A stretch of 58,111 nt of DNA. It comes from a virus (taxonomy: Duplodnaviria > Caudoviricetes). Positions 5,377 through 57,289 of the stretch are shown one piece after another. Where the stretch lies: IMG/VR virus record IMGVR_UViG_3300025141_000107, positions 1-58,111 of that record; one strand, given 5' to 3'. How positions within the stretch are numbered: the first letter of the stretch is position 1; every line of letters begins with the position of its first letter. The notes below the pieces were generated by a model. It was not told the origin of the DNA. It saw only the letters and a program-made list of their open reading frames with translations, and ran no database searches. The position numbers and the translations under genes are program-made.

Positions 5377-5647
5377 TTATACTTGTCCGGAAAAAGATGT
5401 GCGCAAAGAAGACATTGTTGAGCTAATTAGGGTTGACCTTCCTGACCATACCAATGGTGCATTTGATGTCAAGATAGAGTCAGATGATGGTGGCGCGCAT
5501 ATTTCAATCTTTCTCGAGGATCACACAAATTCTCAGGTTATAATGGGAAAATTTTCTAGAAGATTTAAAGATAGCAGGATCCTAATTATTAAAGTCCCGA
5601 AGGGATCGCTCGACTATCTTAGAACTTCTAGTCTAAAATCCAAGTAG
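5321..5647 (+). CDS. Hypothetical protein, start uncertain
   Basis: Fills a gap on the coding strand. Confidence 0.55.
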   Translation: MKISGKIFVHLKQAVKTHSYTCPEKDVRKEDIVELIRVDLPDHTNGAFDVKIESDDGGAHISIFLEDHTNSQVIMGKFSRRFKDSRILIIKVPKGSLDYLRTSSLKSK

Positions 5648-5673
5648 CGAAATAAATATCTCTATAGGCGAGG

Positions 5674-5844
5674 ATGAAAATGAGATATTTAATCTTTATA
5701 TTTTTCTTGATGGCATGTCCAAAGAAAAATGATGTCAAAACATACGAAAAAAAAGAGAAAGAGAGGGCACTTCAGGAGCTTTTAGAGGAAGAGGATTTTG
5801 ATGAGATACCAGAAGCTAATGAAGATATCAAAGAAGAGGATTAA
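5674..5844 (+). CDS. Small acidic putative lipoprotein (56 aa)
   Basis: MKMRYLIFIFFLMAC lipobox-like N-terminus. Confidence 0.55.
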   Translation: MKMRYLIFIFFLMACPKKNDVKTYEKKEKERALQELLEEEDFDEIPEANEDIKEED

Positions 5845-5915
5845 ATAGATTGTTAATACTGTTTTAATATTAGATAGAAGCAATATATTTATTATAGCAC
5901 ACACTGGATATTGAT

Positions 5916-6827
5916 ATGAAAATTTCAAAAAAAGCCCTTAGGAAAATTATTAGAGAACAGGCAGCGAGGCTCCTCGAGACACCCAATCCATCAGAGACAC
6001 CTTTGCCTAGTGTTCCACAGGATGTACTTGATGCAGGCATCAGTGTCGCCAGTGCCGTGGTCGCTCTTGATTTTATGTCGAAGATGGCACTAGCATCATC
6101 ACTCGCAGATGATCTTGATAAGATGCTTTCTTGCGCTATGACCGCAGCGAACCCATCTGAGGGAGATATAGCAAAGGGTCTTGAGTGCCTGATGCTTATT
6201 AGCAAGCACAAAGCTAAGCTGCAAGAAACTATCCCAGGTGAGAGTGAGAATATAGATAAGATTGAGACATGGATAATGACAATTCCTTCTCAGCTTCCTG
6301 CAATACCGATTCCTAACCCACTAGAGGAAAAAATGAAAATAACGCGCAACCAGCTCAGAAATTTACTCACTACAACTTTGAATGAGTCAACTAATAGATC
6401 ATATAAGATGACATATGAAAAGCCACCCATGCCTATGCAGAGTAGAGCTGATCCAGAATTTGCACAGCTAATTAAAAAGAGTAGAATAAAAGCTGAAGAC
6501 TCGATGAAGATCACTCGCAGTCAGTTGATGCAGATTATGCAAGAAGAACTTGGTAAGTCTGCACCATTCGGCAGTGGAATGAAGCAGGCCAAGCTTGACA
6601 AGGATCAGAAGAAGATCGTCGGCCACACATGACTGACTCATGTTAGGCGGAAGGGTTCCGCTTTAAAAGAGCTAGGTGTGGTCAAGAGACATTCATTAAA
6701 TGAATCAGGGGACGTAAAAAACTATGATGTATACTGGACTGAAAGTGGTGTGCTTGAGAAGGGAATACCGGTTCACATGCTCGAATCAGTTAAGCAACAG
6801 CATCATGCTCACGAAGCTACAGAATAG
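5916..6827 (+). CDS. Leader-bearing protein read through TGA 6630-6632; candidate selenoprotein
   Basis: Three MKI[ST]-type leaders (5916, 6333, 6504); after TGA the frame stays open 64 codons to TAG 6825-6827, ending 12 nt before the next gene; SECIS-like hairpin. Confidence 0.7.
6633..6675 (+). promoter_or_regulatory. Bacterial SECIS-like stem-loop
   Basis: TTAGGCGGAA-GGG-TTCCGCTTTAA upper stem with G-rich loop starting 20 nt after UGA; lower stem CTGACTC/GAGCTAG. Confidence 0.65.
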
Positions 6828-6839
6828 CTAGGAAAGTAG

Positions 6840-7304
6840 ATGAAAATCACCCGTAGACATCTTAGACGACTCATCAATGAAGAGATTACAATTTTATCTG
6901 AGCATGATGGTCACCACGGTGATCATGCATCTGTTGATCAGCGATTTCGCTGGTATCTTGATGTAACTAGCAGGATTGCTTCTAAAAGAGGATCAGCTAT
7001 AGAGGGTGAAATACAGGGCTTGAGAAGAGATGTAGCAGAGTTACTCGGTGATCTAGAGAGACATCTACCTGGCCACAGTCCTGCCTATGATCATCTTATG
7101 AACTTGGTTTTGCGCAATGATGACTTTCCTATACTCTCGTCCCTATTTGCAGATGAAATCAGCGTTCAGAATGATAACACTGATGTTGCAAATACAAGCT
7201 ACTCCGTTGATGATGTCGTATTTCACGATGTGGACTTGAGTGATATCGATGTCGAAGAGCTTGAAGGTAAAACAGGTGCTGCTCAAACTAGGGAAATCCC
7301 ATGA
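6840..7304 (+). CDS. MKITRRQLR-leader protein
   Basis: MKITRRHLRRLINEE..ILSE. Confidence 0.8.
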   Translation: MKITRRHLRRLINEEITILSEHDGHHGDHASVDQRFRWYLDVTSRIASKRGSAIEGEIQGLRRDVAELLGDLERHLPGHSPAYDHLMNLVLRNDDFPILSSLFADEISVQNDNTDVANTSYSVDDVVFHDVDLSDIDVEELEGKTGAAQTREIP

Positions 7305-7314
7305 GAGAAAACAA

Positions 7315-8082
7315 ATGAAAATAACGCGAAGACAAATTAATCTTCTTGTAAAAGAAGCAGTTGAAATTTTGAATGAAGAAGGGTATGACTGTATCAAAGA
7401 TTATATGCTAATGGGTTACTCTAGAGGCGAAGCACAGAAAATGTGTGGAGGATCATCCAGCAGAAGCAATTACAGCGGTGGACAAAGAAGGCGACGCTCG
7501 AGAGCGATGTCATACACAGGTCTCAATGATTCTACAATTTCTGACATTGAAACTATTATTAGAGATTCACGTGAGCAGCTTACAGACTGGGAAGATAATT
7601 TTCTTGCATCTGTTCTAAATCAACTTAAATATAAGAGGATAGGCTTGTCTCCCAAGCAAGATCCAATTATAAAGAGAATCTTATCTAAGTATAAGCAGGA
7701 TGATGATCCGGATACTAATGACGACGGTGTTCTTGATGCTGAAGAGATCAGCGCAATGGTTGATAAAATTGAGGACGATATAATCAATGAATCTGCTCAT
7801 GCTAAACCTGAGACTGCTGATCTGGCAAATGCAGCACTCGGTTTCATTCAAGAGTGGCAACAGGACGGAAAAGATGCCAGTGAAAAATCAAAGCGTGCTC
7901 TTGACACAGTAAAGGCTAGCTCTGAGTTTGAAAAGATGAGAACAGATGGAACTTCTGTCAAAGCCGATCGCTCCAGTCTATTTTTGAAAAAAGTACAAGA
8001 TCTCCAGAAAAGTGACAAAGAACTGTTTGATTATCTCAAGGATATCGGCAAGAAGATTACAATTCAAAGTGTCGGACTGTAG
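7315..8082 (+). CDS. MKITRRQLR-leader protein with DxNDDG motif
   Basis: MKITRRQINLLVKE..ILNE; DTNDDGVLD. Confidence 0.8.
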   Translation: MKITRRQINLLVKEAVEILNEEGYDCIKDYMLMGYSRGEAQKMCGGSSSRSNYSGGQRRRRSRAMSYTGLNDSTISDIETIIRDSREQLTDWEDNFLASVLNQLKYKRIGLSPKQDPIIKRILSKYKQDDDPDTNDDGVLDAEEISAMVDKIEDDIINESAHAKPETADLANAALGFIQEWQQDGKDASEKSKRALDTVKASSEFEKMRTDGTSVKADRSSLFLKKVQDLQKSDKELFDYLKDIGKKITIQSVGL

Positions 8083-8084
8083 AT

Positions 8085-8822
8085 GTGAAAATCTCAGATG
8101 CAAATATTAGAAGAATCATAAGAGAAGAGATTAGATATTCGCTGAATGAGATATCTGATGAAGAGGCAGAGAAAGTTCTTGGAAGAGAGCTTGAGACAAG
8201 CTTTTGCAGAGTTGGGGCATCAGACTTAAAGAGGTTGACTCTCGCTGATATTAAAAAATATGGTGGAAGAGTTCCGTCTTACTACTCAAGTAAAATAAAC
8301 ATTGCCACGACACCACCTATAAAAGCTGAAGATCTCGTGAGTATCACAAGTAATTTTGCAGGCCCTGGGAGACCTGGGCATAAAGGTATCGACTACGCTG
8401 CAAATGCGGGCACGCCTATCTACGCAGTTGCAGATGGTGTAGTTAGGAAAATATACACTAATCCTGACGCGGTGAACGGTTATGGAGTTGACATTGATCA
8501 CGGCCACGGCGCGGATTGTGTCAACCACAGCTCACAGTACATTCACATGTTCGAGTTGCCGTGGTCAGGTGAGAGAGACGAAAAGGGTAAAAGAATACCT
8601 GGGAAAAATTTAAGAGTAGGTCAAGAAATAAAAAAAGGAGACCACATAGGGAGGGTGGGAAATACAGGTGCAAGTAGGGGGGCACACCTTCACTTTCAGA
8701 TAATGCAAAATGGTGTTGCAGTCAACCCAATTCTATTCAGGGAGGATGATCCCTACGCCGCTGCCCGGGAAAGAGGGTGGAAGGGTGAAATGATAGAAGA
8801 CGAAGAGGAGCATGAAGAGTGA
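8085..8822 (+). CDS. M23-family metallopeptidase with leader
   Basis: HKGID, Y-x-H, VGNTG-x-S-x-G-x-HLHF, VNP. Confidence 0.9.
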   Translation: MKISDANIRRIIREEIRYSLNEISDEEAEKVLGRELETSFCRVGASDLKRLTLADIKKYGGRVPSYYSSKINIATTPPIKAEDLVSITSNFAGPGRPGHKGIDYAANAGTPIYAVADGVVRKIYTNPDAVNGYGVDIDHGHGADCVNHSSQYIHMFELPWSGERDEKGKRIPGKNLRVGQEIKKGDHIGRVGNTGASRGAHLHFQIMQNGVAVNPILFREDDPYAAARERGWKGEMIEDEEEHEE

Positions 8823-41089: not shown

Positions 41090-41935
41090 ATGAAAATAAG
41101 AAAATTAATACTTGAAAAAATTATTAAAGAAGAGCTCATGCTAGATGAAAAAAGAGATCTAGCGACACTTCTAGAAGATGATGATGAGTACGTTCCAAAG
41201 GTTGATAGGCTTAGACAAGGTAAAGCATATAAAAAATACATGGATGCATTTGATGCGAATGTAATTGATAAATTACATACAATTGCTGCAGATGAGGAGG
41301 TTCGTCCGTACTTTGGCTACGCAGGAATGGCTATAAAGATAGGTTCTACAAAGCACTTTCTAAAATCTGTAGGCGTTGAAAGTGAACATCTACGAAATGT
41401 TCTTGCAGGCGGTTTTGAAAATATACCTTCCAAATACTGGGTAGGTGTAATAGAGCACTGGTCGACGACTGTTCCTGAATATGGCCACAAGGGTTGCGAT
41501 GCAGTTGCAGATGCTTTTGTAAGAGGTGTTATATATGATATAATCACAGGGCCATCTGGTGCTGTAGCAAGGGCAAGAAAGGTAAGGAGCATATCCGCCA
41601 TCGTACAAAAACATCGACTCATAGGGTTGGTCATAAATGATGAGATGCTTGAGGCTATACTTTCAGCTCAGACAATTGAGGAGATAATGAAGACAAGCCA
41701 AGCAAAAGAAGCTGTTAAGAAGGTATCAGCTAAAATTTGCACATCTTCGTGGGATGAATTTTTACTTAATGCAGAGTCTGAAATTGTAAAATACGCTGCA
41801 GAATTAACAGCTATTGTTCTTGGAGTTCCCACACCAGGCGGGGGAGGCGGAGGTGGTACACCTCCAGCTCCAGGAAAAACTTGCTCAGGCGGAGGGGCAC
41901 CTGATGGGAACGATATGTGTCCAGAAGACTACTGA
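41090..41935 (+). CDS. Leader-bearing protein
   Basis: MKIRKLILEKIIKEELMLDE; Gly/Pro tail. Confidence 0.8.
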   Translation: MKIRKLILEKIIKEELMLDEKRDLATLLEDDDEYVPKVDRLRQGKAYKKYMDAFDANVIDKLHTIAADEEVRPYFGYAGMAIKIGSTKHFLKSVGVESEHLRNVLAGGFENIPSKYWVGVIEHWSTTVPEYGHKGCDAVADAFVRGVIYDIITGPSGAVARARKVRSISAIVQKHRLIGLVINDEMLEAILSAQTIEEIMKTSQAKEAVKKVSAKICTSSWDEFLLNAESEIVKYAAELTAIVLGVPTPGGGGGGGTPPAPGKTCSGGGAPDGNDMCPEDY

Positions 41936-41938
41936 TTA

Positions 41939-42178
41939 ATGGGAAAAGAATCTAAAAAAGATATAGCAAATATCATATTTGATCTAATAGAGTCTAATGT
42001 CAATGTAAGAGCATTTAAAGGTTTCGGATCTACACAGGTATTCTTCGATAGATCACCGACAAATCTAGGAAAATCATCGGTTAGTGTAGCCATAGAGAAA
42101 GACAAGCCTTCTGAAAAAGAATCTCACGACAGGAAAAAGCTAGTTAAGGTTAGTAGGGCATTTATAAAGACCCTATAG
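41939..42178 (+). CDS. Hypothetical protein
   Basis: Operonic position. Confidence 0.6.
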   Translation: MGKESKKDIANIIFDLIESNVNVRAFKGFGSTQVFFDRSPTNLGKSSVSVAIEKDKPSEKESHDRKKLVKVSRAFIKTL

Positions 42179-48343: not shown

Positions 48344-51025
48344 ATGAATATAACAGAATCACAGTTTAGAGAACTAGTCAGATCAGAAATAATAAGAAGA
48401 AACAAAGGGTCTCTGAATGAGGGTCTCCATAGTCTTATAACCCAAGAGTATGGGTTGCAGTGGGGTGGCTCTTTGCAGAACTCTGATACAAGAAAAACTT
48501 GGGCGAAAAATCTAGGCTACCCAGAAGAACGGCTCGCGTCGATAGGTACCACGAAGGGCAACATCGCTTTTGAGAAATGGCTACGGGATACATACCCGCC
48601 TGGAAAAGGCGATAATAATAAAACAGTCAAAGCCGCTGTAAGTGAGCCGGTGGAACAACAGACTAAGAGTGACACGGCTACAGCAGGTGGCACTGTAGCT
48701 GATCTAGTCAAGATGATCACGACGCCAGGTGGCACTCTGACTGACGGCGGAAAGTTATTCACTGTATTATTAGACAGAGTAGGTCAGACAGGTAAACTTT
48801 ATATAAAAGCAGGCGGGACAGAAATCAGTTTACGCAACGTCGTTGTCCCTGCTGGGGGTGGTTCATTTATTAACCATGTCAAAAAGCTTAAAGCTTCTGA
48901 TAAAATATCTTCACTAGTTTCAGACCCGCAAACTGCATGGGTTGCAGTGTTGTACGCTTGTTTGGAGGCATCTAAAGCCTTGCCTCAGTTGTCTCCCCAG
49001 CTGGCGGCCATGCTCGATGCAGGGCAGTGGGAAAGCATCCAGACGTATCTTGATGCTGTGAACAAGCTTCAATCTTTGAAAGATATCGGGATAAGCTTCA
49101 TTATAAAGGCTGCAGAAGCAAAGAAGTGGGGCAAGGATCTTGAATGGAAACGAGCCGCGAAAGACGGACCTGATGTCTTTGTGGCAACAGCTGATGTTGA
49201 TATACAGGCTTTATCAGGAAATAAGCTAAAGGGAGCCAAGCCCTGGACTATTAAATATTATATTGGGCAGGGCGAGAAGCCATCTATCAATATCAAATCC
49301 TCTGATGGTGACGGAAAAGAGCTGTATATGCAAGGTGATAGCAAGTCACAATTCGACTATATTGTGGATAATATAGGCACCTACGCCGAAGTCAAGGCAA
49401 AAGTCGTGGAGGCTGAAGGTGGTGGTGACGATGACGGCGGTGCTCAAGTAAGGGACCCAGAGGTTGTCGGTGGCAAAATTGACAAAGATAAGAAGCTAGT
49501 AACGAAATTGTGGCCAGTAAGATATGACGGTGATGGTGAGGTAGCATTCAACATTCGACTTCCGGCAGCATATGTTAATGCTGGACGCAAGTTCCAGTCT
49601 GTAGATAGGAAACTTGGACTATTTGACAAAGAGGTTCTCTCGAAGGTAAATGCTGCAAATTTAGCTGTGCCCGATAGTGAAAAAGGTTTCACAATCAGGT
49701 GGGGTAAGTACAATGGTATGCCTACTGATTATACCTCTATATTCAAAGAAACGGAGGTCACCTCCATTGAGAACATAGAAGAGATTAGGCTAGATGTTCA
49801 AAAGCTTAAGAAGATAAGCGAGGCTGAGTCACAGGTGAAACAGGTTTATAATATACTTGTGGCCTACAAGAAGCAACTCAGAGCTCAGATAAAAAATTAC
49901 CAGAGTCACGGTAGTGAAGACTGGCATAGCACGGAATTCGCGAAGAGCATGTCTGATAGTTTGAAAGTTGTTAATAACATTATCAAAAAAATGGAGGAAT
50001 CGCTGTGGGATGAATTAAAAGTTGTTCTTAGAAATGGTACAACACGGAAGCTCTATAGGCCACACAAGAATGCACTTGGTTCCAGCATAATGAAGCAAAT
50101 TGACAATGTGATGCAGAATTTAAATCACGAAAAATATGAAACTGCAAAATACAAAAAAGGAAAGCAGACACCTAAGCGAATGTTACAGTGGGTAGATCCA
50201 GGAAACGACTCTAACACAAGATATGTTCCGCCTAAGCCCGCGAATGAAAATATAACAAGAAATCTATTGGACACCATAGAGTCACTAATCTTAGAAGAAT
50301 TATCAAAAAAAAAAGTAGTTAGTGAAAAAGTATACAATAGAAATCTAACAACATCGATTTATAGGGTGCCAGAGCCGGGACGCGGCGTAAAGCTGTCATC
50401 AATGAAAGGATCAATTAAAAAGTATGGTGTTTTAGCTGTTGGTGCTGCTGCTGGCTATAAGCTTGGTGATAATAAGGATTCTAGACTCAATCCACCTATT
50501 GTGACTAATCATATTGAAGTATCATCTGATGCTGGCGGAAGACATGATCCAACTGACATGACCAGGTACAAGATGCACCATGGCGTGGATATTCCGGTCT
50601 CTTCTGGAACACCTGTCTACGCAGTAGGACCTGGCACAGTGGCGGAGGTAGCCGGGGTTTCTAGTCCGCATACAGGTTGGGGTTGCTTTGTTAAGATTAC
50701 ACACACTGGGCTGGATTTCACAACGACACGATATGCTCATCTTTCTAGTGTGAGTGTAAAGGTGGGTGATACTATAGGAAAAGAACGCCTTATTGGTCTG
50801 TCTGGTGGGACAAAAGACGAACCTTGCGCTGGAAAATCAACTGGGCCTCATCTTCACTTTTCAATTGATGAAAGTGCTGATAGAGCTGTATATGACAACT
50901 TTTTTGGCCAGGCTGGAAGATGGCAAAGCGAACCCGGAGCGACAGGCTGGGGTGCTGAGGAATTTGAAAAAGAGTACAGAAGTTCGGAAGATTGGGGTGA
51001 TTCTGAATTTGAAAAAGATCCTTGA
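48344..51025 (+). CDS. Large leader-bearing protein with C-terminal M23 peptidase
   Basis: MNITESQFRELVRSE..SLNE; HHGVD, YAHL, STGPHLHF. Confidence 0.88.
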   Translation: MNITESQFRELVRSEIIRRNKGSLNEGLHSLITQEYGLQWGGSLQNSDTRKTWAKNLGYPEERLASIGTTKGNIAFEKWLRDTYPPGKGDNNKTVKAAVSEPVEQQTKSDTATAGGTVADLVKMITTPGGTLTDGGKLFTVLLDRVGQTGKLYIKAGGTEISLRNVVVPAGGGSFINHVKKLKASDKISSLVSDPQTAWVAVLYACLEASKALPQLSPQLAAMLDAGQWESIQTYLDAVNKLQSLKDIGISFIIKAAEAKKWGKDLEWKRAAKDGPDVFVATADVDIQALSGNKLKGAKPWTIKYYIGQGEKPSINIKSSDGDGKELYMQGDSKSQFDYIVDNIGTYAEVKAKVVEAEGGGDDDGGAQVRDPEVVGGKIDKDKKLVTKLWPVRYDGDGEVAFNIRLPAAYVNAGRKFQSVDRKLGLFDKEVLSKVNAANLAVPDSEKGFTIRWGKYNGMPTDYTSIFKETEVTSIENIEEIRLDVQKLKKISEAESQVKQVYNILVAYKKQLRAQIKNYQSHGSEDWHSTEFAKSMSDSLKVVNNIIKKMEESLWDELKVVLRNGTTRKLYRPHKNALGSSIMKQIDNVMQNLNHEKYETAKYKKGKQTPKRMLQWVDPGNDSNTRYVPPKPANENITRNLLDTIESLILEELSKKKVVSEKVYNRNLTTSIYRVPEPGRGVKLSSMKGSIKKYGVLAVGAAAGYKLGDNKDSRLNPPIVTNHIEVSSDAGGRHDPTDMTRYKMHHGVDIPVSSGTPVYAVGPGTVAEVAGVSSPHTGWGCFVKITHTGLDFTTTRYAHLSSVSVKVGDTIGKERLIGLSGGTKDEPCAGKSTGPHLHFSIDESADRAVYDNFFGQAGRWQSEPGATGWGAEEFEKEYRSSEDWGDSEFEKDP

Positions 51026-52833: not shown

Positions 52834-54027
52834 ATGTCAATATTCAAACACCACAAGACCTCAGCTGATAGATCTGCAACTGACAGATCTAGGCATAAGG
52901 ATAAGATTAGAAAGGCAATTAGAGAGGGTGTCCACCACATAGTCTCAGATGAATCTATAATTGGCCAGAACGGAAAAAAGAAGATAAAAATACCCGTCAG
53001 AGGCATCAAGGAGTATAGGTTTGTATACGGTGACAATGACAAGAATAAGAAGGTTGGATCAGCAAATGACAAGGAGGTCAGGAGGGGCCAGAAGGTAGGT
53101 CCAGCAAGAAAAAAGGGTAGAAAACCAGGCTCTGGTGAAGATAAACCAGGAAATAAGCCTGGAGAGGAAATGTACGAAGTAGAGATAACCCTTGAAGAGC
53201 TTTCCAGCTACCTATTTGATGATCTCAAGCTTCCAGATCTCGAAAAGAAGAAGATGCTAAATATAGTTTCAGATAAGTTTAAGAGAAAGGGACATCGAGC
53301 ACAAGGTATCCGCCCCAGGTTATCAAAGAAAGAAACTTTAAAAAATAAAATTAGAAGAAAGAAATCCTCAGAGAGATTTAAAAAATCAACCGGTGAAGAA
53401 AATGAGGACGAATCATTTTCTTTTCACGAGTCAGATTTAAAATACAAGCACATAAAGAAGCAAAAAGAGAAAACAAGCAATGCTGTCATATTCTTTATGA
53501 TGGATACATCTGGTTCAATGACTAAGCATAAAAAATTCCTAGCACGATCATTCTTTTTTCTACTTTACCACTTTATTAGAAAAAAATATAAAAATACCGA
53601 GATCGTATTTATATCTCACTCCTCAGAAGCAAAAGAGGTTGGCGAGGATGATTTCTTTCAGAGAGTGAGTTCAGGCGGAACTATCATTTCGTCAGCTTTG
53701 GAAAAATGCATAGATATCTGCTCTCAGAGATACCACGCAGACACGTGGAATATATACGCTTTTCATTGTTCGGATGGCGATAACTGGCCTTCTGATAATA
53801 AAAAATCAGCAAATCTTTCTTTAAAGCTGGCAGATATGTGTCAGCTCTACGCCTACATTCAAACTACACACGGTGTCGGTGATTACTGGAGCAACAATAA
53901 TACAATTGTTGCCGACTATGGTTCAATAAATCACCAAAAGTTTAAAATTGCACACCTGGAGAAAAAGGTAGATGTGTGGCACGAATTTAAAAGAATACTA
54001 GGGGGTTCCAGTGGATTGGAAAATTAA
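52834..54027 (+). CDS. yeaH: YeaH/YhbH (DUF444) vWA-domain protein
   Basis: DRSRH N-terminus, MMDTSGSM, SGGT, SDGDNW. Confidence 0.9.
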   Translation: MSIFKHHKTSADRSATDRSRHKDKIRKAIREGVHHIVSDESIIGQNGKKKIKIPVRGIKEYRFVYGDNDKNKKVGSANDKEVRRGQKVGPARKKGRKPGSGEDKPGNKPGEEMYEVEITLEELSSYLFDDLKLPDLEKKKMLNIVSDKFKRKGHRAQGIRPRLSKKETLKNKIRRKKSSERFKKSTGEENEDESFSFHESDLKYKHIKKQKEKTSNAVIFFMMDTSGSMTKHKKFLARSFFFLLYHFIRKKYKNTEIVFISHSSEAKEVGEDDFFQRVSSGGTIISSALEKCIDICSQRYHADTWNIYAFHCSDGDNWPSDNKKSANLSLKLADMCQLYAYIQTTHGVGDYWSNNNTIVADYGSINHQKFKIAHLEKKVDVWHEFKRILGGSSGLEN

Positions 54028-55339
54028 AGATTTGCAGGAATGGGATGATAATATTTGCAAGCTTGCAAAAGAGTTATCTCTCGACTGGTATCCTATAAAC
54101 TACGAGATATGTGATTATTATGAGATGATAGGTCACATGTCATATCATGGAATGCCCAGCCACTATCAGCACTGGTCATATGGAAAGTCATTTGAGAGAA
54201 CACACCAAATGTATAATCTAGGTGCAGAGGGGCTACCGTACGAGCTGATAATAAATTCTAATCCATCAATAGCATACCTTATGAGACAAAATCCTCTATA
54301 TTTGCAGATATTGATCATGGCACACTGCGTTGGCCATTCTGATTTTTTTAAAAATAACAGGATGTTTTCGGACACCAGACCGGAATCTGTTACATCTAGA
54401 TTTAGAAATGCTAGAAAGAGAATACAAAAATATAGCGAAGACCCTAGCATTGGATTAAAAAAAGTTGAAAGATTTCTTGATGCAATTCACGCAATTAAAT
54501 TTCAAATAAATAGAAACAATAGAAAAAGATTGACACGAGATGAGGTAAAGAGCAGAGTTATTTCAAAATACAATCAAAATAAGAAAAATAAGAAAAATAA
54601 TAAAAATAATAAAAATATTTTAAAACCAGACTTAAAGAGAAGGCTTCTGCAGCCAGATGATGATTTTTTATCATTTTTGATAGAGTACGGAAATCACTTT
54701 GAAGATTGGGAAATTGATATACTAAGCATTATTAGAGATGAATCTGAGTATTTTATACCTCAAATTAAAACAAAAATTTTAAATGAAGGGTGGGCATCTT
54801 TTTGGCATTATAAGCTTTTGCATAATCTAGATTTGCCACAAAAATTTCATCTTCCATTTCTAAAATCACACAATCAGGTAATTAGACCACACATAGGGTC
54901 AGTTAATCCGTATCACCTTGGCTTTCATATTTTTAATAAAATTGAAAAAGAGAGAGGGATAGAGGAGTGTTTCTTTATCAGAGAAGTCCACGAGGATGTC
55001 TCGGCAGTTAGAATGTACCTTGAGTATGAAGATTTTAAAAATTTAAACTTATTTTCATACTCAAGAAAGAAGGATGGAAGAACAATTGATGAAATATCTG
55101 ACGGAATTGGTTGGGAAAAAGTTAGAGATGATTTAATTAAAAATATAGGTGACAATTCGATCCCAAGGGTTATAGTATCCAATATATCAACTAATGGTGA
55201 TCTAATACTAGAGCATATACACGATGGTAGAGATCTAGATCTAGACTATGCAGATAATGTTGTAAACTCTATTAGAGTATTGTGGAATAAAGATGTAAAA
55301 TTTTTCACAATTATTGAAGATGAACCCTGGGAAATTTGA
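54011..55339 (+). CDS. spoVR: SpoVR/YcgB-family protein
   Basis: GMP..HWSYGK, YELIINSNP, AHxxGHSDFFKNN, TKILNEGWASFWH, NPY. Confidence 0.92.
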   Translation: MDWKIKDLQEWDDNICKLAKELSLDWYPINYEICDYYEMIGHMSYHGMPSHYQHWSYGKSFERTHQMYNLGAEGLPYELIINSNPSIAYLMRQNPLYLQILIMAHCVGHSDFFKNNRMFSDTRPESVTSRFRNARKRIQKYSEDPSIGLKKVERFLDAIHAIKFQINRNNRKRLTRDEVKSRVISKYNQNKKNKKNNKNNKNILKPDLKRRLLQPDDDFLSFLIEYGNHFEDWEIDILSIIRDESEYFIPQIKTKILNEGWASFWHYKLLHNLDLPQKFHLPFLKSHNQVIRPHIGSVNPYHLGFHIFNKIEKERGIEECFFIREVHEDVSAVRMYLEYEDFKNLNLFSYSRKKDGRTIDEISDGIGWEKVRDDLIKNIGDNSIPRVIVSNISTNGDLILEHIHDGRDLDLDYADNVVNSIRVLWNKDVKFFTIIEDEPWEI

Positions 55340-55360
55340 TATAATTAACATGGAGATACA

Positions 55361-57289
55361 ATGTCTAAATCTGATTTTTTAAAAATAATTCGAGATCAAA
55401 GATCTAAAAAGAAAGAAGTTCGCTTTAGTGGGACATTTATTGAATATTTGGACCATATTAGAGAAAATCCAGAAATTATAAAAACTTCTCACAAAAGATT
55501 GTATGGCTGCATAATAGAACAGGGTATGGAAGTTATGCCTGATAGTGATCCAAGAAAATCAAATATATTTGGCGGAGACAACGTAAGGGTATACAATTAT
55601 TTTAAAGATCAGTTTTTCGGAATGGAAAATGTAATATCAAAACTAATGAGATTTCTTGCTTCTGCATCTAAGCGAGGTGAGGAATCTAGGCAGGTATTGC
55701 TCCTAATGGGACCGGTAGGTGCAGGAAAATCAGATCTGACAGAGCATATTAAGAGTTCTCTTGAGGGTTCAACATTTTTTCACCTTGTTGGAGATCCCCA
55801 GAGGGGCGAACCTTTACAGCTTATACCTAGAAATCTTAGGGAAAAATTTGAAGAGGCACTTTGCGTAAAAATTGAAGGTGACATCAGCCCAGTAGCTCGC
55901 TATATTTTAATGGAAGAGCTAGAGGGGAAATATGAAAATTTTAATGTCAAAGAGACTAGTTTTTCCCAAAGAGCACGACGCGGCATAGCTTCAGTCCCAC
56001 CGATGGATGCAAATTCACAGGATGTAGGTGTTCTTATAGGGACCGAGGATATTTCAAAACTAGATAAATATCCCGAAGATGACCCGCGTGTTTTGTCTCT
56101 AAATGGTGCATTCAATGTTGGCAACAGAGGTATAGTTGAACTTATAGAGATTTTTAAGAATGAAATAGAGTTTCTTCATACAGTCATAACTGCTACACAG
56201 GAAAAGAGAATTCCGTCACCTGGAAAAAATGATATGATTTATTTCGATGGCGTAATTCTTGCTCACTGTAATGAGTCTGAATGGAATAGATTCCAGAGTG
56301 AACATACGAATGAAGCAATTCTTGATAGAATTGTCAAGATAGATGTTCCATATGTTCTCGAACTAGATCAGGAAATAAGGATATATGAAAAAATCATTGG
56401 TAAGTCTGATTTTGATGCCCATATAGCACCCCATACTTTAAAAGTTGCATCAATGTTCTCAGTAATGTCAAGACTCCAGCAATCTCAAAAATGTGATCTT
56501 TTGACAAAAATGAAAATCTACAACGGCGAAGATGTCATTGAAAAAGGCAGGGTTAAGAATGTAGATATAAAAGATCTGAGAGATGAGTCAAATAGAGAAG
56601 GAATGAAAGGAATTTCTACAAGATTTATCATGAAATCAATAGATGCAGCCCTTTCAGATTCAGAAAAAAATATGATAACACCGATATCGATTATGGATTC
56701 ACTTATAAAGCAGGTAAAAGACCAGGTTATAAATGAAGATGACAAAGAGAGATATCTTGAAATAATTCAAAAAATAATTAGAGAAGAGTATCTCAAAATA
56801 CTAGAAAATGAAATTGCTAAAGCATTCATCTCTGCATACGAAGAACAAGCCCAGTCTCTTTTTGATTCATACCTTGATAATGCAGAATCTTACACAAATA
56901 GAACAATAATGAAAGATAGAATAACAAAAGAAGAGAGAGAGCCAGATGAAAAATTTATGGGTGCTATTGAAGAACAGATAGGAATAGTTGGTAGCGCATG
57001 TGAAGGATTTAGAGGCGATGTTACTGCTTACATGTTTGCCAAAATGAGAAGAGGGGAGAAAATAGACTACAGATCATACGGACCGCTAAAGGAAGCAATT
57101 GAGTCATATCTCATAACATCTGTCAAAGATATCGCTAGAATTGTCACTAGAAGCAAATCTAGAGATGAAGACCAGAAAAAGAAATACAGCGAAATGATGA
57201 AAACACTAATGGATGAATATGAATATAGTGAGGAAAGTGCAGAGGAGATTCTAGTATTTGCAGCAAATAATCTCTGGCGGGATTCGTAG
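55361..57289 (+). CDS. prkA: PrkA/YeaG-family AAA+ serine kinase/ATPase
   Basis: FFGME, LLMGPVGAGKS Walker A, GNRGIVELIE, NEAILDR. Confidence 0.92.
   Translation: MSKSDFLKIIRDQRSKKKEVRFSGTFIEYLDHIRENPEIIKTSHKRLYGCIIEQGMEVMPDSDPRKSNIFGGDNVRVYNYFKDQFFGMENVISKLMRFLASASKRGEESRQVLLLMGPVGAGKSDLTEHIKSSLEGSTFFHLVGDPQRGEPLQLIPRNLREKFEEALCVKIEGDISPVARYILMEELEGKYENFNVKETSFSQRARRGIASVPPMDANSQDVGVLIGTEDISKLDKYPEDDPRVLSLNGAFNVGNRGIVELIEIFKNEIEFLHTVITATQEKRIPSPGKNDMIYFDGVILAHCNESEWNRFQSEHTNEAILDRIVKIDVPYVLELDQEIRIYEKIIGKSDFDAHIAPHTLKVASMFSVMSRLQQSQKCDLLTKMKIYNGEDVIEKGRVKNVDIKDLRDESNREGMKGISTRFIMKSIDAALSDSEKNMITPISIMDSLIKQVKDQVINEDDKERYLEIIQKIIREEYLKILENEIAKAFISAYEEQAQSLFDSYLDNAESYTNRTIMKDRITKEEREPDEKFMGAIEEQIGIVGSACEGFRGDVTAYMFAKMRRGEKIDYRSYGPLKEAIESYLITSVKDIARIVTRSKSRDEDQKKKYSEMMKTLMDEYEYSEESAEEILVFAANNLWRDS

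Follow-up and report, generated by a model that had tools for sequence, protein, structure and literature searches.

A phage gene with a conserved in-frame UGA and an adjoining SECIS-like hairpin: a probable phage-encoded selenoprotein

The DNA considered here is a viral sequence of 58,111 bases (IMG/VR virus record IMGVR_UViG_3300025141_000107; Duplodnaviria, Caudoviricetes), which was analysed at its full length and is called the window below. It is a piece of a large phage genome, since CheckV puts its completeness at only 18%. An open reading frame (ORF) of 238 amino acids (aa) begins there with the ATG at 5916 and terminates at a TGA at 6630–6632; the same frame stays open for 64 further codons, up to a TAG at 6825–6827. 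This interrupted gene, the hairpin that follows its UGA, and the likelihood that the UGA is read as selenocysteine (Sec, U) are the subjects of this report. A first-pass annotation, made from the letters of the window, had proposed that the UGA specifies Sec by means of a hairpin resembling the bacterial Sec insertion sequence (SECIS). The stop and the 64-codon continuation that it gave agree with our coordinates and translation. The locus has the following features.

5916–6827, plus strand: read-through frame of 303 codons and TAG, made of three modules, each headed by an MKI[ST] leader motif, with the proposed Sec domain last
5916–5960, plus strand: leader motif, copy 1, MKISKKALRKIIREQ
6333–6377, plus strand: leader motif, copy 2, internal, MKITRNQLRNLL..., preceded by GAGGAAAAA
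6504–6827, plus strand: Sec-domain module, with an internal ATG and the leader motif MKITRSQL..., then the H-x-U-x-x-H ... H ... Y-D-V ... H-x-H domain
6624–6641, plus strand: H-T-U-L-T-H motif, with invariant His codons at 6624–6626 and 6639–6641, inside predicted beta-strand 1 (residues 39–50)
6630–6632, plus strand: in-frame UGA, the proposed Sec codon, aligned with Cys of homologs and followed by C (UGA-C)
6645–6663, plus strand: SECIS-like hairpin, with a core stem of 7 base pairs (bp) at 6646–6652/6656–6662, an extra A-U pair (6645/6663) in the window phage, and the loop GGG at 6653–6655
6690–6692, plus strand: invariant His, residue 64 of the 108-aa module, in predicted strand 2
6804–6812, plus strand: C-terminal H-x-H, the second His invariant in a 21-sequence alignment

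In the window the three leader-headed modules are fused in a single frame. The Sec module is a free-standing gene in several relatives (e.g., L003/L044) and is placed behind other modules elsewhere. The gap that follows the TGA had been called otherwise empty. That is not strictly so, as it holds a 49-aa ORF with a GTG start at 6678; this GTG, however, is not conserved in relatives.

The TGA is conserved among relatives of the gene. The first homolog from a scan of viral contigs (L003, 62% identity, on a 108-kb contig) is a free-standing small gene in which the same codon is TGA and the frame stays open beyond it. Further relatives were gathered with a degenerate DNA pattern encoding G-H-T-(TGN)-x-T-H-V and two basic codons, the third base of the TGN codon being left free. 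All 38 sequences of this set (the window and the 37 viral contigs that match the pattern) have TGA, and the frame remains open for 64–200 codons downstream. At least 119 loci in metagenome contigs match the pattern; 109 of the matches listed are family members, all with TGA, and the first 36 nucleotides (nt) come in 71 distinct versions among the matches listed. The column is never TGG, TGT or TGC within the family, and no sense codon occurs there in 147 rows of the GHT-x-LTHV clade (for the metagenome part, among the matches listed). A second and divergent subfamily, A-H-N-TGA-A-T-H-M, has TGA in all of its five contigs. The supposition that no other genome has TGA at this position is refuted by the viral and metagenome sets alike. 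The same pattern yielded only five chance sites (three TGG, two TGC) and no homolog in 185,579 prokaryote genomes, one per species, and it is for this reason that we call the family phage-specific.

Ten of the metagenome matches listed fall outside the family. Seven are unrelated chance sites (four TGC, three TGG), one is a TGA with no relation to the gene, and the remaining two are copies of a variant with a deletion. In this variant (loci L155 and L165), G-H-T-TGA-Q-T-H-V-K-R-K runs directly into a basic C-terminal tail and the beta-barrel core is absent. L004, L068–L070 and L076 were dropped as homologs, their matches being due to chance or confined to the leader.

A sequencing error at the TGA, which the first-pass annotation had wished to see excluded, was looked for in an independent public run. 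A contig of 1823 nt from that run covers 6300–6859 with eight differences from the window, none of them listed at 6630–6632, and because of this the TGA is no assembly error. In X3 and X4, two of the four public runs compared, several contigs of other phages match the window over 6621–6667 only, that is, over the UGA and the hairpin; this segment is the most conserved DNA of the gene.

Protein homologs were sought by phmmer with the 108-residue module as query, Sec being written as C, against 1.84 billion representative proteins. There were 73 hits at E <= 1e-3, Cys forms included. Thirty of these stop exactly at the residue before the TGA, which is there also the last residue of the database protein itself; 14 start just past the TGA, at query positions 45 to 64; one matches the leader part only; and 28 span the TGA column. 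Cys occupies the column in nine of the 28 (as H-S-C, H-A-C, H-N-C or H-M-C, then A-x-H-V) and Trp in the other 19. Alternation of TGA with Cys at one column, an expectation voiced in the first-pass annotation, is thus found. The Cys forms include proteins of cultured cyanomyoviruses (P-SSM7 PSSM7_192, syn9 gp185, S-RIM2, P-HM1 and S-CAM9). The myovirus domain H-x-C-x-x-H-V ... YDV ... H-x-H, to which the first-pass annotation had likened the extension, exists in PSSM7_192 and in other cyanomyovirus proteins, with Cys at the TGA column.

A Cys-type protein, used as tblastn query, hits 240 phage records, of which 195 are Synechococcus, 33 'Cyanophage', 10 Prochlorococcus and 2 marine viruses. 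The window protein itself aligns with P-SSM7 across the TGA with 31% identity (tblastn, E 9e-3), and PHROG 22379 matches its residues 196–299 at E 4e-4 and P-SSM7 at 6e-25. Cyanobacteria are among the few bacterial lineages apparently unable to use Sec, according to a review (PMC9312934). Cys in cyanophages as against Sec in phages of other hosts would be consistent with the lack of Sec use in Cyanobacteria. In two further loci (L085, 88–1038, and L086, 49–1350) the Cys-type domain is fused behind an N-terminal part that has an H-E-x-x-H motif and no Pfam family above threshold.

Trp in homologs had been named beforehand as a finding that would speak against Sec. It appears in 19 of the 28 spanning hits, but only seemingly, as TGA lies beneath the W wherever close DNA exists. 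P0017 is locus L046 read with translation table 4, identical (100%) over the full 163 residues, and the true terminal TGA of L046 is also shown as W. P0071, P0009 and P0012 are 91–94% identical to loci with TGA beneath the W. The best-matching DNA beneath the W is TGA for all 19 Trp hits, with an identity of only 41–88% for 15 of them. The Trp at this column is spurious and stems from genes called under code 4, as judged from the DNA beneath it where that DNA is close, and presumably so for those 15. Public protein sets thus hold the family translated with code 4 and W at the Sec column (P0003–P0018, P0028, P0050, P0058, P0070 and P0071). Such entries, together with those truncated at the TGA or starting after it, would mislead homology-based checks of the Sec hypothesis.

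The hairpin lies where it had been reported, directly after the UGA (stem 6645–6652/6656–6663, loop GGG 6653–6655), and its loop begins 23 nt from the U of the UGA. A lower stem that had also been claimed is not predicted by RNAalifold on the alignment of 38 sequences and is not kept in relatives. This alignment is free of gaps, and its columns are counted here with the U of UGA as 1. The 7-bp helix (columns 17–23/27–33) is paired in all 38 sequences. It should be noted that the search pattern ends at column 23, and hence pairing of the 3′ arm was not imposed by the selection of sequences. Three pairs covary, 17–33 (AU/GC/GU), 19–31 (CG/AU) and 20–30 (AU/GU/GC), either by changes on both sides or through wobble intermediates. 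In one example, a synonymous change in an Arg codon (CGG/AGG) is accompanied by an Ala/Ser change (GCU/UCU) four codons on. When the helix is taken as 8 bp, 94.8% of the cells are paired, as opposed to 85.9% in shuffles, and there are 22 double-change cells versus 8.7 in shuffles; neither observed value was reached in any of 500 shuffles. Sliding the 3′ arm leaves only 42–62% paired. Among the 71 distinct metagenome versions in the matches listed, 68 have all seven pairs and three have six of seven, pair 18–32 gaining one A-U variant. The second subfamily has other amino acids at the site (M-E-W-K-S-S-T), yet a 7-bp stem and a GUC loop are present at the same offset.

A uniform hairpin scan gave the same result for each of 35 distinct TGA sequences: a stem of 6–8 bp and a loop of 3–4 nt starting 23 or 24 nt from the U; in 34 of them the loop is exactly 3 nt and the offset 23. 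Across the alignment, the metagenome versions listed and the second subfamily, the loops are GGG, GGA or GUC, with G as the first base in all. The free energies of the 35 scanned TGA-form hairpins are −6.0 to −9.9 kcal/mol, with an average of −7.7. In Cys-type sequences a hairpin at that offset was found in none of 11, a small sample (nine from cyanophages or marine viruses and two viral contigs); their best hairpins are at other offsets and average −3.3 kcal/mol. The hairpin is therefore conserved, with compensatory changes, only in the TGA-bearing homologs, which is how the first-pass annotation had envisaged that a SECIS would behave. The base after the UGA is C in 37 of the 38 sequences. 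In bacterial SECIS elements the apical loop is 16–37 nt from the UGA (PMC10778597). The loop offset of the phage hairpin is within this range, and a loop that begins with G fits the SECIS rule.

The substitutions downstream of the TGA argue that the frame there is a real protein under purifying selection, as had been anticipated. The ratio of nonsynonymous to synonymous substitution rates (dN/dS) is 0.19 over codons +12 to +29 after the TGA, from 240 usable pairs out of 496, the others being identical or saturated. The synonymous rate is itself lower over the hairpin (dS 0.68 versus 1.45 further downstream), and the third codon positions +17, +20, +23 and +26, which lie within the 5′ arm and the loop, are invariant. 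An AlphaFold2 model from a 26-row alignment (mean predicted local distance difference test score, pLDDT, 71.9; 78–93 over residues 41–100) has one five-stranded domain, with the H-T-U-L-T-H motif inside strand 1 (residues 39–50). If the protein were to end or restart at the TGA, strand 1 of this model would be cut.

In fold searches the best VIA Z was 6.0 (3fc3_A, root-mean-square deviation 1.7 over 48 residues), many KOW, SH3 and Tudor rows followed with Z of 4.5–5.8, and Foldseek E values were at least 0.13; the matches are generic small barrels (KOW, SH3, Tudor, CPH), giving no functional inference. A sequence search of the PDB with the family profile returned no hits at E <= 1, and the Sec domain had no match in Pfam. 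The model suggests that the product is a compact, SH3-like small beta-barrel of some 65 residues. Its invariant or near-invariant residues are H42, U/C44, H47, G59, H64, L66, G70, Y75, L94 and the C-terminal H-x-H. The arrangement of His and Sec leads us to hypothesize a metal-binding or selenol-redox site.

Elsewhere in the window TGA acts as a normal stop. Of 48 ORFs there that do not overlap and reach 120 aa or more, 19 end in TGA, Pfam-supported ones such as SpoVR among them; of the other 18 TGA-ending ORFs, 10 have another stop within 10 codons. Trp is encoded by TGG (203 codons in the window), and the two conserved Trp columns of the Sec gene are TGG in all sequences. Neither a tRNA with the anticodon UCA nor a tRNA-Sec was found in the window or in a complete relative of 284 kb (G001), whose eight tRNAs and transfer-messenger RNA (tmRNA) include none with that anticodon. 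On codon use and tRNA content, then, the phages use the standard code and genome-wide reassignment of TGA is excluded. No tRNA-Sec scored over the Rfam cut-off in six records (the window, G001 and four further large relatives). No selB or selD was found in five phage records, one of them 100% complete; selA was not searched for. Because the phage records lack tRNA-Sec, selB and selD, the decoding machinery, if the UGA is decoded as Sec, must come from the host. The G001 tmRNA is of the one-piece type and adjoins the tRNA cluster (L047, 630–993, which is G001 231895–232258, minus strand; Rfam RF00023, 103.9 bits; tag ANDNVEYDYALAA).

The reading that we consider likely is that of a selenoprotein encoded by uncultured marine phages with a bacterial-type SECIS, host SelB-dependent insertion placing Sec in a small His-rich SH3-like beta-barrel domain. 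The comparative tests support what the first-pass annotation held at its core: UGA as Sec, a bacterial-type SECIS hairpin, a phage gene. During infection, host SelB carrying Sec-tRNA(Sec) would bind the 7–8 bp hairpin at 6645–6663 and deliver Sec to a ribosome paused at UGA-C, giving the full protein instead of the truncated one. The phage would contribute the mRNA signal only, with tRNA(Sec), SelA, SelB and SelD supplied by the host. Sec would then sit in strand 1 within H-x-U-x-x-H; taken with H64 and the C-terminal H-x-H, this points to metal binding or selenol redox chemistry as the likeliest role. The first-pass annotation also raised a candidate selenium-dependent switch between short and long isoforms.

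Several observations weigh against this reading. The fold of a 61-nt segment of the window is unremarkable (z = −0.76; as good a fold or better in 48 of 200 shuffles), and a comparable hairpin follows 70 of the 2663 TGA triplets of the window (2.6%); of the 41 window TGAs flanked on each side by 45 or more open codons, two have one. The hairpin in the window sequence alone is no proof, and the case rests on the comparison with relatives because a single-sequence hairpin is no better than chance. The hairpin is also short, with a 3-nt loop and without a bulged U. The E. coli fdhF minimal SECIS has a similar offset and contains such a bulge. An Rfam search of 5800–7000 returned no SECIS family at E <= 10, only three chance matches to unrelated families; the content of Rfam's SECIS model being unchecked, we give this absence no weight against SECIS function. 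The family has no conserved partner Cys, unlike CxxU or UxxC redox selenoproteins, and a classic CxxU thiol oxidoreductase is unlikely for this reason. The TGA counts are not independent events, as the viral and metagenome contig sets overlap in their origin and include close relatives. Finally, the listed public runs that contain the stretch include none of RNA.

The main rival is programmed read-through of the UGA with a standard amino acid, inserted by a near-cognate Trp, Cys or Arg tRNA, the hairpin serving to stimulate it and to fix the ratio of short to full-length product. UGA-C is the leakiest termination context in E. coli, and the C is there in nearly all of the 38 sequences; hairpins 3′ of stop codons can promote read-through, and the present one has no match to a curated SECIS model. 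In homologs, however, the invariant H-x-C-x-x-H motif has its Cys at this column, so that the identity of the inserted residue matters, and a sense codon has never been fixed there in the 147 clade rows (their metagenome part among the matches listed). The short product would comprise only the leader and about 30–40 residues and break off midway through a predicted beta-strand, and the loop offset and the G-first loop fit the SECIS rule. We regard this explanation as unlikely. That two separate genes meet here, the first ending at the TGA and the second starting downstream at GTG 6678, with the junction serving to couple termination and reinitiation, is less probable by a good measure. There is a 49-aa GTG ORF at 6678–6827, and gene callers have given the 14 database proteins that start just past the TGA and the 30 that end at it. 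The 38-sequence alignment, however, has no site at which a start codon is kept, and the database starts are scattered over query positions 45 to 64. Protein-level conservation extends over the 15 codons that separate the TGA from these starts (L-T-H-V-K/R-R/K-K...), these codons line up with the unbroken Cys-type domain, and the model puts both flanks of the TGA in one beta-strand.

Reassignment of TGA (to Trp, as in code 4, or to Gly, as in code 25) or its reading by a phage suppressor tRNA is close to refuted. It would account for the W in 19 of the 28 spanning database hits, and stop-codon recoding is known in some phages. The W entries, however, are code-4 translations, P0017 reading even the real terminal TGA of L046 as W. 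Moreover, 19 of the 48 long window ORFs end in TGA, Trp is TGG in 203 codons whereas the column is never TGG, and none of the eight tRNAs of the complete relative has the anticodon UCA. A sequencing or assembly error, or a decaying pseudogene, might be suggested by a single stop codon in an otherwise intact frame. Conservation refutes it, leaving a negligible chance: many assemblies have contigs with the same TGA, an independent run has it too, and the dN/dS downstream is 0.19.

The phage gene resembles the bacterial selenoprotein genes of the E. coli fdhF type in its in-frame UGA, in the stem-loop that follows at once within the coding region, and in a G-first loop within 16–37 nt (PMC10778597). 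Homologs with Cys and the UGA-C context are further likenesses. It differs in being phage-borne, in its minimal hairpin (7–8 bp, 3-nt loop, no bulge), and in a Sec that lies between His residues and lacks a partner Cys. The poxvirus glutathione peroxidase (GPx) selenoproteins, of molluscum contagiosum virus and fowlpox virus, are likewise encoded by viruses and depend on host Sec machinery, the fowlpox SECIS lying in the coding region according to a review (PMC8310308). They belong, however, to eukaryotic viruses, being captured cellular GPx genes with a eukaryotic SECIS, whereas the present family is phage-specific and its signal of bacterial type.

The cyanomyovirus domain ('possible cytitidyltransferase' or hypothetical; P-SSM7 PSSM7_192, syn9 gp185, S-RIM2, P-HM1; PHROG 22379) is homologous to the Sec domain and shares its H, G, H, L, G, Y and H columns. 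It differs in having Cys, often a second Cys, and in being often within much larger proteins; a hairpin at that place was found in 0 of 9 cyanophage or marine-virus sequences. The 'cytidyltransferase' label rests on neighbouring domains and has no Pfam support for this domain. Stop-codon-recoded phages, with TGA or TAG reassigned genome-wide, are similar in that in-frame stops break standard gene calling and callers switch to code 4. In contrast, a single codon of one gene is concerned here, TGA is otherwise a normal stop, and there is no suppressor tRNA.

Sec decoding is known from cells and from two poxviruses with captured host GPx genes. In its accessible text, a 2021 review of viral recoding names only the GPx genes of molluscum contagiosum and fowlpox viruses for Sec (PMC8310308), and a marine trace-element survey of the same year, in the text available, has selenoprotein families with few or no viral sequences (PMC9402790). 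The words 'phage', 'virus' and 'viral' do not occur in the 2026 and 2022 reviews of prokaryotic selenoproteomes or in the deep-Sep paper. Four motifs of the family have no occurrence in two supplementary sequence files of the Global Ocean Sampling (GOS) selenoproteome survey of 2008 (PMC2398784); two unnamed families from that source, GOS_A and GOS_B, were considered as earlier descriptions and set aside as different proteins. Full-text literature searches, with subscription-only literature outside their reach, found no earlier report of a phage selenoprotein.

If the reading as a selenoprotein is true, phages exploit the host SelB pathway through a very small RNA signal, and H-x-U-x-x-H marks a new selenoprotein family whose chemistry is likely to involve metal or redox. 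Infection would be coupled to how much selenium the ocean offers, and from the presence of Sec or Cys in the gene one could predict the host's ability to decode Sec. Gene callers truncate, split or translate the Sec gene with code 4 and so plant false Trp in databases. A fuller picture, which we offer as speculative and, taken as a whole, less likely than not, would have this as the first bacteriophage-encoded selenoprotein family, widespread in uncultured marine large phages, whose minimal SECIS hijacks host SelB and whose Sec/Cys state tracks host Sec decoding, making it a sequence-only marker of host range. The MKIT leader would direct the protein into the capsid for injection, the selenol/His centre would act at the start of infection, and phage fitness would depend on marine selenium.

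The leader, of about 15 residues (M-K-I-T-K/R-x-Q-L-R-x-I-I-x-E-E), heads a run of otherwise unrelated ORFs and is found also inside fused frames.

5916, 6333, 6504, 6840, 7315, 8085 (M23 peptidase), 34193 and 41090, plus strand: leader sites of the window, in at least eight frames

A strict regular expression for the leader finds two copies in the window, 16 in G001 (L087–L101) and none in shuffles. In T4, capsid-targeting leaders are short shared N-termini that end in (L/I)-x-E and are removed at maturation by the prohead protease; the present motif, with its I-x-E, may resemble them. It could be a capsid-targeting or protease-processing signal, and packaging of the Sec protein in the virion by way of the leader is plausible. 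Of the leader ORFs, that at 41090–41935 (plus strand) was tried as a second Sec site, its terminal TGA (41933–41935) being followed by 80 open codons up to a TAG at 42176–42178. An in-frame ATG stands two codons on and there is no SECIS-like hairpin, and the TGA is probably an ordinary stop with the next gene following.

Blastn of 5500–7400 against 50,697 phage records gave no match, nor did tblastn of a neighbouring 767-aa protein; from these searches no cultured relative was found, hence no hint of the host. The window also carries a trio of genes for DUF444 (YeaH-like), SpoVR and PrkA (YeaG-like) at 52834–57289, plus strand (Pfam E values 3e-110, 6e-119 and 5e-135). The closest phage copies of PrkA in tblastn have about 30% identity (Thermus phage phiYS40, Ralstonia RsoM2USA, Enterobacter phages and uncultured records of 595–642 kb) and likewise give no host hint. 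Two Peptidase_M23 proteins are encoded at 8085–8822 and 48344–51025 (plus strand), the smaller with the leader; the larger, of 893 aa, resembles tape-measure or lysis-type proteins in PHROGs. At about 19575 on the minus strand, near the tRNA-Lys gene, lies a TGA that has 45 or more open codons on either side and a hairpin that qualifies (−10.6 kcal/mol); apart from the proposed Sec codon, the window has no other such site. A scan of G001 for a UGA with a hairpin gave three other candidate sites.

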